Virus record (IMG/VR): IMGVR_UViG_651053023_000012
Coordinates: 1-14,727 of that record
Origin: a virus
Lineage: Duplodnaviria; Heunggongvirae; Uroviricota; Caudoviricetes
Length of the DNA stretch: 14,727 nucleotides
Strand: one strand, 5' to 3'
Part shown: one piece after another, positions 702-3,553 of the stretch
Layout: every line of letters starts with the position of its first letter
Position numbering within the stretch: the first letter of the stretch is position 1
Notes under the pieces: model-generated
The model's database searches: none
Seen by the model: the letters and a program-made list of their open reading frames with translations, nothing else
What the model was told of the DNA's origin: nothing
Position numbers and translations under genes: made by a program

Positions 702-2096
702 TCAGCTAATCGTGATACCTGCTGTGGATTTCTTCATCACCACAACCAGCAAATCACTGATACTGGCTGTGGGATACCAGTCATTTACCAGCCACGCTGA
801 TACCGAAAACTCCAGCGTCATGTGACCGCGACCAGCAGGCATATCAATAACACCTGTATAAACCAGCGTATTATCCAGCGCGGTACGGTTATAAATTTCA
901 GCACCGTTTTTCTTCACTATCAGACGGCATGAGGAGTAAATATCAGTATGCTCTCTCTCATGTTTAGCGCCGCTGAATGCCACCGCCGGAATAACAATCT
1001 GCCGGTCAAACGGCTGATCGTCATAAACCCTGACGGTAATGGTCCCTGATGGCCACCGTTCCGGTGCACGGGAGTCCCGGGGGAAAGCTTTGCCCACTGT
1101 TTTAACGAGATCGCCTTCAATCTGGTTCGCGGACAGTTTTCCCAGAACCCGACAGTTCTCGTTAATCGTGACGTTGTTGAGCGTCCCGGAGTTCGCATTC
1201 ACGTTACCGCTGATATCGGCATTTTTCGCCGTCAGCCGCCCATCCGGTGTCAGGGAAAATGCCGGTGGATTTCCACCACTGGTAATGGTGGGGGCCGTCA
1301 GGCGTTTCAGGAACACGTCGTTCATGAATATCTGATTGCCCTGCGCCACAAACATCGGCGTTTCATTCCCGTTTGCCGGGTCAATAAACGCGATACGGTT
1401 AGCGGCAACCAGAAACTGGCTCAGTTTGCCTTCCTCCGTGTCCTCCATACTGAGGCCAATACCCGCGACATAATGTTTGCCGTCTTTGGTCTGCTCAATT
1501 TTGACAGCCCACATGGCATTCCATTTATCGTTGGCATCCTTCCACTCTTTCGAAAACTGCTCCAGTTTGCTGGCGTTATCCTCCGTCAGGTCGACTTTTT
1601 CCAGCAGCTCTTTACCAAGATGGGATTCGGTTATCTTGCCTTTGAAAAAATCCAGGTAACCTTCCGCATCATCGCTCGCCCGACCGACGGCCTCCACGAA
1701 TGCCGATTTGCCAACGGTGTTCACACTGCGGATATAAAAGTAATAATCATGGCCCGGTTTGATATTGATACTGGCGGCTATCCAGTACAGCCCCGTGCCA
1801 AGGTAGCGGGCTGTGGTTTCAACCTGCCTGATATCGGTAACCCAGGCCACAACATCCACCGCATCACCGGTCAGGTGGCGGCTGTTCATGGTCTGGCTCT
1901 TGCCTTCTGCAACCGGCGGAGGTAATGCCAGAAATGCCGACACAATATCAACCACCCGATAAAGCTTGAGGTTGCTTTCATGCCCCCCTGCAACGGGTAG
2001 ATTTTGCAGCCTTGCCGCAGCAGTCTGGCGATGTACACCTGACAGTGCCGCCAGTTGACTGATATTCAGCGTCAGATTTTTTAACTCTCGATCCAT
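702..2096 (-). CDS. Chimeric tail-fiber / host-specificity (J C-terminal-like) protein. The first ~60 aa resemble the terminase small subunit Nu1, followed by a 24-aa segment duplicated from the M15 endolysin gene. Probably a deletion-fusion remnant and possibly non-functional.
   Basis: The ATG at 2094-2096 is preceded by GGAG ([38 protein letters not shown]...). This aligns by eye with the HTH of lambda Nu1 (QLADIFGASIRTIQNWQEQGMPVLRGGG). Residues from ~100 onward ([34 protein letters not shown]...[18 protein letters not shown]...) match the C-terminal region of lambda J / Stf-type tail fibers as I recall them. The last ~150 aa are divergent. Confidence 0.65.
1842..1914. repeat. 73-bp direct repeat, copy 1 (inside the chimeric tail-fiber ORF). 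It has one mismatch against copy 2 at 3326-3398.
   Basis: Direct comparison of ccaggccacaacatccaccgcatcaccggtcaggtggcggctgttcatggtctggctctt[g/a]ccttctgcaacc at the two positions. Confidence 0.9.
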
Positions 2097-2312
2097 ACCC
2101 GCTCCAGAATGTTTTAAACATGCATCTTGCAAACAACTTTAGGCAAACGGTGTCAGTAATGAACAAAAAACAATCAAAGTCGACACCATGAAAATAAAAA
2201 AGCCTTAATATCAATCAATTATAGTGGTGGTGATGACGGATGAAATTTCAAAAACTAGCCTTTTTCCTCGACGCTCCCGCCCCGTGGCAAGGCCACCCCA
2301 CCGGGAGGACCC

Positions 2313-2465
2313 ATGAAAAATGAGAGCAATTATCATTTATGCTCAATTAAACATCAGCATTATCGCAGCCCCTCACTGAAGGACTGCTGTAATGCTGATT
2401 GTTCAACATCAAAAAAACCCAATCTGTTGCAAGTTATAAAAGCAACAAACGACATTGCGCGTTAA
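2313..2465 (+). CDS. Small hypothetical ORF (50 aa; MKNESNYHLCSIKHQHYRSPSLKDCCNADCSTSKKPNLLQVIKATNDIAR).
   Basis: ATG at 2313 preceded by GGGAGGA with ~4 nt spacing. It is below the size cut-off of the supplied ORF track. There is no recognisable family and it may be spurious. Confidence 0.2.
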   Translation: MKNESNYHLCSIKHQHYRSPSLKDCCNADCSTSKKPNLLQVIKATNDIAR

Positions 2466-2528
2466 GATTTTCTTAATATTTAAGAAATATATTTTTTAAT
2501 CTCATTTATTTTTGCAAAAGACTTTTCA

Positions 2529-3104
2529 TATGCAGCGTCGAGAAATAAAGAAAATTACTTATTTAATCACTTTGATTTTAACTACTCTTTTGTTTGTTTA
2601 TTTTTTAAGAACACCCACCACAATCAATATGAAACAGGCGCATAAAATAAATCAACAACACCAGACAATTTTCCTTATCCGTCACGGTGAACGATGTGAC
2701 AGAAGCAAAAATGCATGTCTCTCAAGCAATAAAGGAATTACCGTCAATGGTGCCATTAAAGCTCGTGATTATGGAAAAATATTTAGCAATACTTTCCCGT
2801 CATTCAGCCTTTACTCCACGGATACCATACGGACAATGCAGACAGCCTGTTTTTCTCTGGAGGAAAAGCAGCCTCCCGGATACCGTTGGCTGCAACATGC
2901 GGACTTGATGCTGCAAAGAACATACTCAAATTGTCATCCGATAATAAAACTACCGTTATATTCACCCATAATCATTGCCTGACACAAATAGCAAAAAAAA
3001 TGAAATGGTGGAAGTTAAAGCCAGAATATCTTGAAACACTGGTTCTTCATATCGAAAACAATCGTCTCATTCTTGACGGAAAACTGACTCACGATAAAGC
3101 GTAA
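2529..3104 (+). pseudogene. Histidine phosphatase superfamily protein (SixA/PGM-like) with an N-terminal hydrophobic signal-anchor. It appears frameshifted around 2870-2890 (or carries a sequence error).
   Basis: The N-terminal frame has the catalytic RHG motif (IFLIRHGER) and a downstream RTMQTA segment. A different frame (open from 2787) carries the C-terminal His motif TVIFTHNHCL. The two frames together resemble SixA (…CGD…LVISHLP) as recalled. The gene is AT-rich and opposite in orientation to the phage genes. Confidence 0.5.
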
Positions 3105-3140
3105 CAATCATTCAAAGAGTCAACATATTTTCTGCATTAA

Positions 3141-3168
3141 CCCCGAACAGTTCCTCTGCCGGGGTTTT
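3141..3168 (+). terminator. Weak candidate intrinsic terminator downstream of the phosphatase ORF.
   Basis: ccccg-(14 nt loop)-cgggg followed by tttt. The stem is short and the loop long. Confidence 0.3.
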
Positions 3169-3175
3169 GTATTAG

Positions 3176-3553
3176 TTATCGCCTCAACTGAAAATGCGGT
3201 CCGTCTTTCAGGCTGGTCCAGTCCCCGCCCCATTCGATGGCAGTTCCCAGCTCTGCGGCAGCCTGCTTAAATGCCTGCGCGATTTTCTCGTACAGAGGCC
3301 AGTCCCATGACACCTGGCTGCCACCCCAGGCCACAACATCCACCGCATCACCGGTCAGGTGGCGGCTGTTCATGGTCTGGCTCTTACCTTCTGCAACCAG
3401 CTGTTTCTGGCGTTCTTTCGTGCGCAGGCCCTCCGTAATACCGAAATCAACCTCCGACAGTTCAAGGGCGCGGCGAACTACAGCAACCAGCTGTGGTTTG
3501 ACGCCTTCCAGATTTTTCTCGCTCCGGCGGCTGAATCTGAATTTACCCGACAT
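3176..3553 (-). CDS. Peptidase M15-family endolysin (L-alanyl-D-glutamate peptidase / VanY-like zinc peptidase).
   Basis: [10 protein letters not shown] zinc-binding motif (H-x6-D). Size is about 125 aa. The ATG at 3551-3553 is preceded by GAGGTG. Its position directly after the holin-like genes fits a lysis cassette. Confidence 0.75.
   Translation of the reverse strand: MSGKFRFSRRSEKNLEGVKPQLVAVVRRALELSEVDFGITEGLRTKERQKQLVAEGKSQTMNSRHLTGDAVDVVAWGGSQVSWDWPLYEKIAQAFKQAAAELGTAIEWGGDWTSLKDGPHFQLRR
3326..3398. repeat. 73-bp direct repeat, copy 2 (inside the M15 endolysin gene, where it encodes the zinc-motif region [24 protein letters not shown]).
   Basis: Same 73-mer as 1842-1914 with one mismatch. 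Both copies are in frame on the minus strand. Confidence 0.9.

Follow-up and report, generated by a model that had tools for sequence, protein, structure and literature searches.

The 14,727-nucleotide stretch stored as IMG/VR record IMGVR_UViG_651053023_000012 (the window, meaning this DNA at its full length) holds on its minus strand an open reading frame (ORF) at 702-2096 that is composed of three parts: a small-terminase-type N-terminus, ~24 residues of endolysin and the C-terminal 378 residues of the tail-tip protein J. Our comparison of the window with complete E. coli genomes makes it very likely that it derives from a decaying lambdoid prophage of porcine E. coli, in which the chimera was produced by an older swap between two phages and then by a recent deletion of the head/tail block. 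In the following, joint 1 denotes the border between the terminase and endolysin parts, joint 2 the border between the endolysin and J parts, and joint 3 a fusion of the neighboring genes lom and tfa (tail fiber assembly).

Composition of the chimeric reading frame

The frame is open over 702-2132 from a TTG or over 702-2096 from an ATG; the latter start, which gives 464 amino acids, is the one used by RefSeq relatives. Pfam models place DUF1441 at the N-terminus (E 1.7e-9) and the J domains Ig_J_second (partial), Phage_Tail_Tip and Ig_GpJ_C downstream of it (E 1e-21 to 5e-38). With 130.6 bits for Ig_GpJ_C and 121.1 bits for Phage_Tail_Tip, the C-terminal receptor-binding and tip-fiber part of J is present. 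A full-length J of ~1,130 amino acids with its N-terminal tail-tip assembly domains is not found in the ORF, which retains residues 754-1131 of the 1,131-residue J of strain D10. Between the two parts, residues 62-85 are identical to residues 53-76 of the M15 endolysin encoded at 3176-3553 (-); this fragment covers residues 53-77 of 125 and is not a complete M15 catalytic domain. At the DNA level, the shared piece is the longest direct repeat that a repeat search found in the 14.7-kb window (1841-1917 versus 3325-3401, 77 nt, two mismatches, 97% identity), and a repeat of this length is far beyond chance. An earlier note on this DNA, made without database searches, had described a 73-bp repeat with one mismatch, which is the core of the 77-nt repeat, and an in-frame chimera of terminase-like, endolysin and J sequence, which the Pfam domains and the parental alignments described below corroborate.

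The family of the N-terminus differs from that proposed in the earlier note, which had aligned it to Nu1, the small terminase subunit of phage lambda. Membership in Nu1 was rejected because the chimera and its full-length parent of 164 amino acids gave DUF1441 and weak generic helix-turn-helix (HTH) models only in Pfam, even at E ≤ 10, and no Nu1 chain in the PDB matched the N-terminus at E ≤ 10. The chimera passes the gathering score of PF07278 (DUF1441) with 38.2 bits against a cutoff of 35.1, over profile positions 1-51 of 147 only, and the full-length parent reaches 141 bits over positions 1-146. In PHROGs, the full-length protein falls into phrog_141, "terminase small subunit" (E 7e-74). 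Window positions 1915-2096 are 100% identical to the corresponding part of the full-length gene in strain ETEC4073 (locus L008); there, as in phages mEp460 and phi458, the DUF1441 gene has 164 codons and overlaps the large terminase gene TerL. The window retains codons 1-61 and the VAEG residues at joint 1, with neither a complete DUF1441 protein nor a TerL beside it. The DUF1441 gene stands in the position that Nu1 has in phage lambda: it encodes an HTH protein, lies ~190 nt past the genome end and overlaps TerL. The DUF1441-type protein probably shares the role of Nu1, although it has no detectable sequence match to Nu1 (Pfam Phage_Nu1) and its family is DUF1441/phrog_141. Our literature search on DUF1441 returned passing mentions only.

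Joint 1 and the two parental phages

Joint 1 is a 12-bp exact identity, GGTTGCAGAAGG on the coding strand, which encodes VAEG both in the DUF1441 gene of one phage type (parent A) and in the endolysin gene of another (parent B). The coding-strand sequences at this place are CCGCCGGTTGCAGAAGGCGAAATG in parent A, CAGCTGGTTGCAGAAGGTAAGAGC in parent B and CCGCCGGTTGCAGAAGGCAAGAGC in the hybrid, and their comparison places the crossover within the 12 bp. In parent A, represented by ETEC4073 and by one prophage of strain ETEC1748 (L005), the gene order is holins, M15 endolysin, ais and a full-length DUF1441 gene overlapping TerL. In parent B, represented by the zinT-site prophage of ETEC1748 (L007), the holins are followed by one M15 endolysin, a lipoprotein gene, HNH, P27 TerS and TerL. 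Both parent types are found together in ETEC1748.

Among 5,426 complete E. coli genomes, 11 have joint 1, and all 11 are porcine. In nine of them, the endolysin copy extends over 222 bp as far as its stop codon, with the small lipoprotein gene, HNH and terminase behind it. The same ATG that starts the chimera in the window opens, in ETEC4068 (L002) and ETEC1730 (L003), an annotated ORF of 134 amino acids (WP_074150053.1) with the structure DUF1441(1-61)-VAEG-endolysin(57-125). It is identical to the window ORF through ...VDVVAWV and then continues with the remaining endolysin, GSQVSWDWPLYEKIAQAFKQ...HFQLKR*. Downstream lie an ORF for a 60-residue lipoprotein, HNH, a P27-family TerS and TerL, and the near-complete prophage of ETEC1730 goes on with portal, protease, capsid, connectors, tail genes, J, lom, stf and tfa. 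Since these hybrids are undeleted in nine genomes, joint 1 did not remove the morphogenesis block, and since they carry the full 222-bp copy, the 73-79 bp in the window are a truncated remnant of it.

The single-nucleotide polymorphisms (SNPs) separate the two endolysin copies by lineage. The 222-bp duplicate in ETEC4068 and ETEC1730 is 95% identical to the full-length endolysin (copy 1) and carries SNPs of the B lineage. Copy 1 is of the A type at its 3' end, up to a point between window positions 3219 and 3385, and of the B type in the remainder, and the switch lies in the same interval in ETEC4068; the remnant of the second copy in the chimera (R') is of the B type. Outside the patch, the B-type prophage of ETEC1748 is 99.97% identical to that of ETEC4068, which has 1,265 extra bases and the duplicate of 219-222 bp. 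As these alignments read, the hybrid is a B-type phage with an A-type patch of 1.3-1.5 kb, bounded by an ordinary homologous crossover at one edge and by the 12-bp joint at the other. A recent tandem duplication within one phage was rejected as the origin of the repeat, because the SNPs of the two copies point to different lineages, one to A and the other to B; eight of these SNPs cluster at the 3' end.

These data also bear on two other explanations of the chimera. A single complex deletion from terS through J, with 73 bp of filler copied from the nearby endolysin by template switching, would account for a short segment with joints at both ends, for homologies of only 12 bp and 2 bp at these joints and for the presence of the template only 1.5 kb away. 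We regard such an event as very improbable: the nine genomes share the identical terS'/endolysin joint with a copy that extends to the stop codon and leads into the lipoprotein gene, HNH and terminase without any J deletion, and the 3' part of that copy has the SNPs of parent B and not those of the adjacent copy 1. The undeleted hybrids and the parent-B SNPs together indicate that the two ends of the endolysin piece arose separately.

The other explanation, that a protein family normally combines the HTH N-terminus, the 24-residue segment and the J-like C-terminus without any fusion, is extremely improbable. The earlier note had said that homologs carrying both the N-terminal region and the 24 residues would speak against a fusion, and the RefSeq "DUF1441 family protein" of 134 amino acids does carry both; however, it is itself a fusion, confined to the 11 genomes. 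The full-length DUF1441/phrog_141 protein fills its Pfam model and diverges from the hybrid straight after VAEG, the fusion to J occurs in two genomes only, and intact J has 1,131 residues with an N-terminus of its own. In strain ETEC1716, PGAP annotates the two halves of the ORF as partial pseudogenes, "DUF1441 family protein, incomplete" and "phage tail tip protein, incomplete" (missing N-terminus).

The hybrid region was also compared with a collection of sequenced phages. There, the query matches phiP27-like lysis genes and mEp460/phi458-like terS regions, each separately; no record in the collection covers more than 33% of the query, so none contains the ais/cos/terS' patch.

The lipoprotein ORF next to the joint (L002 5657-5839, -) encodes 60 residues with an LAGC lipobox and immediately follows the endolysin gene in phages of the B type and in the hybrids. 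It belongs to phrog_7528, a group of unknown function, and had no Pfam match; from its position and lipobox, it could be a spanin component. The ORF is deleted in the window, and A-type endolysin genes have no such gene after them.

Joints 2 and 3 and the proposed history

Joint 2 fuses codon 77 of the endolysin copy in frame to J residue 753/754 of 1,131. The parent of R' reads GTGGCCTGGGTT up to the joint and GGCAGC beyond it, the J parent reads GAAACGCGGATT and ACCGAT, and the window reads GTGGCCTGGGTTACCGAT; the TT microhomology is common to the endolysin-copy codon GTT and the J codon ATT. The missing interval amounts to ~17.5 kb in the coordinates of ETEC1730. Many relatives match the window as one piece from base 1839 rightwards, and window positions 1200-1838 are 100% identical to intact gpJ genes of many genomes, for example that of D10, whose complete prophage is likewise located on the zinT side of the chromosome. 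The J of ETEC1730 was dropped as the deletion parent (87% identical, ambiguous microhomology) and the J of D10 was used instead. Joint 2 is present in 2 of the 5,426 genomes, namely ETEC1716 and P13-6.

The same two genomes are the only ones with joint 3, at 583-584, where a 2-bp microhomology (TA) marks the loss of ~4.0 kb relative to D10, comprising the rest of lom and the whole of stf. The tfa protein in the window starts with MAFRMSEQ... as it does in D10. Joint 3 does not figure in the earlier note. Compared with ETEC1730 and D10, which have them, the window lacks terminase, portal, protease, capsid, connector, tail tube, tape measure, L, K, I, two-thirds of J, lom and stf. Judged by this gene content, the prophage is defective (cryptic), having lost virion-essential genes that intact relatives at the same site possess.

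The loss of the head/tail block and the cryptic state had been proposed in the earlier note, and both are borne out. The comparison with related strains that it recommended allowed the deletion to be reconstructed, but the deletion joint proved to be that between endolysin and J only. The note's view of the repeat as the mark of the deletion junction does not hold: the two ends of the repeated piece are two separate events, the terS'/endolysin joint being present with its 222-bp copy in nine undeleted genomes. Nor did the Nu1-like gene lose its own partner, as the note had supposed, for the deleted set is of the phiP27/HK97 type with HNH, P27-TerS and TerL.

Insertion sequence (IS) elements were considered as a cause of the deletions and rejected, because none lies at the joints of the window; IS2 in P13-6 and IS481 in ETEC1716 are later insertions elsewhere.

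We propose the following history. In an older first step, which would have left the phage functional, parents A and B recombined at the fortuitous 12 bp, between terS-like codons 62-65 and endolysin codons 53-56. Parent A would have been a lambdoid phage with an M15 endolysin, the ais moron, cos, a DUF1441-type small terminase and TerL; parent B would have been phiP27-like, with an M15 endolysin, the small lipoprotein, HNH, a P27-type TerS, TerL, an HK97-type head and a lambda-type tail. A second, ordinary homologous crossover inside the endolysin gene would have completed the exchange. Its product would be a B-type phage into which an A-type patch has brought the 3' end of the endolysin, ais, cos and the 5' end of terS'; behind the patch, a redundant endolysin half of 222 bp is read through in frame as the 134-residue hybrid ORF. 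In a recent second step, an illegitimate deletion within the prophage, of ~17.5 kb and at a 2-bp microhomology, would have joined codon 77 of the redundant half to J codon 753/754, removing the lipoprotein gene, HNH, terminase, portal, capsid and tail genes and trimming the 222-bp duplicate to 73-79 bp. A similar deletion of ~4 kb, again at 2 bp, would have fused lom codon 17 to the start of tfa as a third step. Sequence comparison establishes the structures, the sequences of the parents, the microhomologies and that the first step preceded the second. For the enzymology, we infer that joint 1 arose when co-infecting or co-resident phages exchanged DNA at short homology or with the aid of a phage recombinase, and that joints 2 and 3 arose in the lysogen by RecA-independent illegitimate recombination or end-joining. 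It is known that phages take up DNA from defective prophages by recombination and that phage recombinases promote this exchange (PMC3945230). From this history, the ORF at 702-2096 would be a non-functional pseudogene derived from two unrelated rearrangements.

Several points weigh against this history. The hybrid lysis region, the exact J allele and the present chromosomal site do not occur together in any one sequenced genome, and the undeleted ancestor directly before the window is reconstructed from ETEC1730 and ETEC4068 (hybrid) and from D10 (J, lom, stf, tfa). The direction of the first step, a gain of the patch from the state of L007 to that of L002 and not its loss by recombination between the repeats, follows from parsimony: ~259 genomes have the B arrangement and ~1,000 match only the DUF1441 side of the joint query (non-hybrid), against 11 hybrids. 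No genome has joint 2 alone or joint 3 alone, so that the two deletions may have come in either order or as one event. The chimera still has its GGAG ribosome-binding site and its ATG. Finally, all three joints are in frame, which is expected by chance in about 1 of 27 cases if they are independent; this leaves some room for selection on translation and may reflect either coincidence or selection for continuous translation in the late operon.

The in-frame joints and the preserved start can be taken as signs that selection keeps the chimera, or the block of cos, terS', receptor-binding end of J and tfa, whether to supply infecting phages with host-range determinants through recombination, to be packaged, as an element with a cos site, by a co-resident A-type helper phage, or to be expressed as a protein that runs from HTH to J tip. 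Such a role would also fit the cos-like site, with sequence conserved to either side of the mEp460 genome ends, the co-occurrence of A-type prophages in the same strain collection and the known uptake of DNA from defective prophages by phages (PMC3945230). We nevertheless consider it improbable. The deletions are recent and rare, given their presence in two genomes only, one of which has its copy further disrupted by an IS2 insertion (P13-6). Only 61 terS-like residues and ~24 endolysin residues are left, ais is frameshifted in the window, and the decay of sibling prophages through different deletions is a signature of neutral erosion.

A related and highly improbable scenario starts from a remnant that has an apparently complete parent-A cos region (2250-2312) beside Q, the lysis genes and early genes, and no terminase: co-resident helpers of the mEp460/DUF1441 type might mobilize it like a satellite, with the receptor-binding end of J and tfa as host-range cargo. 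In that case, the preserved frame at all three joints would be the result of selection for a late transcript that can be translated without a break.

The sibling prophages have decayed in ways of their own. In ETEC4068 (L002, 2510-2898) and in the zinT-site prophage of ETEC1748 (L007, 3952-4339), the 3' end of TerL is joined directly to the zinT flank, with loss of portal through tfa and of yodB. In the A-type prophage of ETEC1748 (L005, 5105-6992), an N-terminal stub of TerL is fused to a longer J remnant. Erosion of the siblings by different, independent deletions fits neutral erosion. For annotation, we suggest treating the ORF at 702-2096 as a pseudogene and WP_074150053.1 of the relatives as a terS'::endolysin' fusion.

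Prophage surroundings and comparison with known systems

The late genes of the prophage, from Q over the transfer RNAs (tRNAs), holins and endolysin to the chimera and tfa, lie on the minus strand, with ais on the opposite strand (Table 1). Window positions 1-9546 are 99.9% identical to the prophage remnant beside zinT/yodB in the porcine strain ETEC1716.

Table 1 Features of the window with their positions, strand and the evidence for each
Feature	Position	Strand	Evidence
tfa, own ATG (580-582) kept	1-582	-	Pfam Caudo_TAP, E 3.6e-43; 95.7% identical to D10 tfa
First 17 lom codons (signal-peptide part), fused in frame to the tfa ATG	583-633	-	Pfam Ail_Lom residues 1-20; alignments with D10 lom and stf/tfa
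3' third of J, C-terminal part of the chimera	702-1838	-	Pfam J domains; alignment with D10 J
Joint 2, head/tail deletion at the 2-bp microhomology TT	1839-1840	-	Three-way alignment of the window, L002 (undeleted hybrid) and L006 (intact J)
R', truncated remnant of a second, phiP27-type endolysin copy, originally a 222-bp partial duplicate	1841-1902	-	Direct repeat; full copy in L002/L003
Joint 1, crossover site of the older phage-by-phage exchange	1903-1914	-	Four-way alignment with L008 (parent A) and L007 (parent B)
First 61 codons (HTH part) of the parent-A DUF1441/phrog_141 small-terminase-type gene; start of the chimera	1915-2096	-	Pfam, PHROG 141, L008
Putative cos-like site of the parent-A phage type	2250-2312	-	Ends of the linear mEp460_4F5 record abut at ~2287/2288
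ais-like lipopolysaccharide core heptose(II)-phosphate phosphatase, moron in the parent-A patch	2529-3104	+	RefSeq (L001, L002, L003, L008); Pfam His_Phos_1 weak
Full-length M15 endolysin, copy 1, with repeat copy at 3325-3401	3176-3553	-	Peptidase_M15_4, 46.4 bits; phrog_465, E 6e-74
Holins, two	3821-4246 and 3556-3831	-	
tRNA genes, three, between Q and the holins (Gly-TCC, Thr-TGT, CAT anticodon)	4672-4981	-	
Q	6247-6921	-	

Both sides of the genome ends of mEp460_4F5 are conserved in the window, 191 nt upstream of the ATG of the chimera. Judged from these record ends, this suggests that a complete parent-A cos-like site is left over in a prophage that had an HNH/P27-type terminase of its own before the deletion. 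The lambdoid gene order of endolysin, cos and terS, to which the earlier note had appealed, applies here with the cos-like site presumed at ~2250-2312. Just upstream of this site, between the divergent ais and terS', positions 2353-2399 form a near-perfect inverted repeat of 23 nt with a 1-nt spacer. The ais gene has a frameshift in this window only, caused by a deletion of 1 nt in a T run at ~2849 relative to ETEC1716, L002, L003 and L008; it could be a real pseudogenization or a homopolymer sequencing error.

The tRNA with the CAT anticodon is called Met by ARAGORN and Ile by RefSeq, and ETEC1730 has a fourth tRNA (Lys) at the same spot. ETEC1716 carries an element of the IS481 family just after the equivalent of window position 9546, which the window does not have. 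Farther along, an ORF of 269 amino acids (10157-10966, +) runs opposite to the surrounding early-operon genes and is bracketed by imperfect inverted repeats of 37 nt (10000-10036 and 11021-11057). It had no match in Pfam or PADLOC; its product equals WP_000161640.1, a "hypothetical protein" annotated in ETEC4068 and ETEC1748, and the ORF may be an uncharacterized moron. A hokD-type toxin ORF (9377-9589, -) and YdaS/YdaT-like ORFs (12718-13408, -) are kept in the remnant.

The cryptic lambdoid prophages DLP12, Rac and Qin of E. coli K-12 contain truncated packaging and tail genes such as nohD/nohA and remnants of stf and tfa. Like them, the prophage in the window has kept Q, the lysis genes and fragments of small terminase and tail genes, has lost the head/tail block by internal deletions and consists in part of remnants annotated as pseudogenes. 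Unlike them, it has undeleted relatives in sister strains, its joints are resolved to the base, its decay is very recent (2 of 5,426 genomes) and its terminase remnant is of the DUF1441 and not the Nu1/Noh type. The K-12 cryptic lambdoid prophages have been used as recombination substrates (PMC3945230). Parent B resembles the Stx2e phage phiP27 (NC_003356/AJ298298) in its holin and M15 endolysin, with 93% nucleotide identity over the lysis genes, and in the packaging arrangement of P27-family TerS and HNH, but the window has no stx genes.

In the model of Hendrix and Casjens, the "novel joints" of mosaic lambdoid genomes stem from module exchange by illegitimate or limited-homology recombination. 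Joint 1 is like such joints in that it links unrelated genes of two phage lineages, swaps a packaging/morphogenesis module and would leave a functional phage with a redundant gene fragment as its scar. It differs from typical ones by lying inside coding sequences, at a 12-bp chance identity (VAEG) and not at a gene boundary or conserved linker, and its counterpart, 1.3-1.5 kb away, is a normal homologous crossover. The debate on the illegitimate or limited-homology origin of mosaic joints has been summarized (PMC3945230), and one natural joint at a 12-bp chance identity inside two unrelated genes bears modestly on it.

In conclusion, the phenomenon is textbook phage mosaicism followed by prophage decay, and it reveals no new gene, system or mechanism; unusual is only the completeness of the reconstruction. 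Its value is that of a worked example: because the sister strains keep the two parental phages as well as the undeleted hybrid and other products of decay, each step of mosaic formation and erosion can be read at base resolution.

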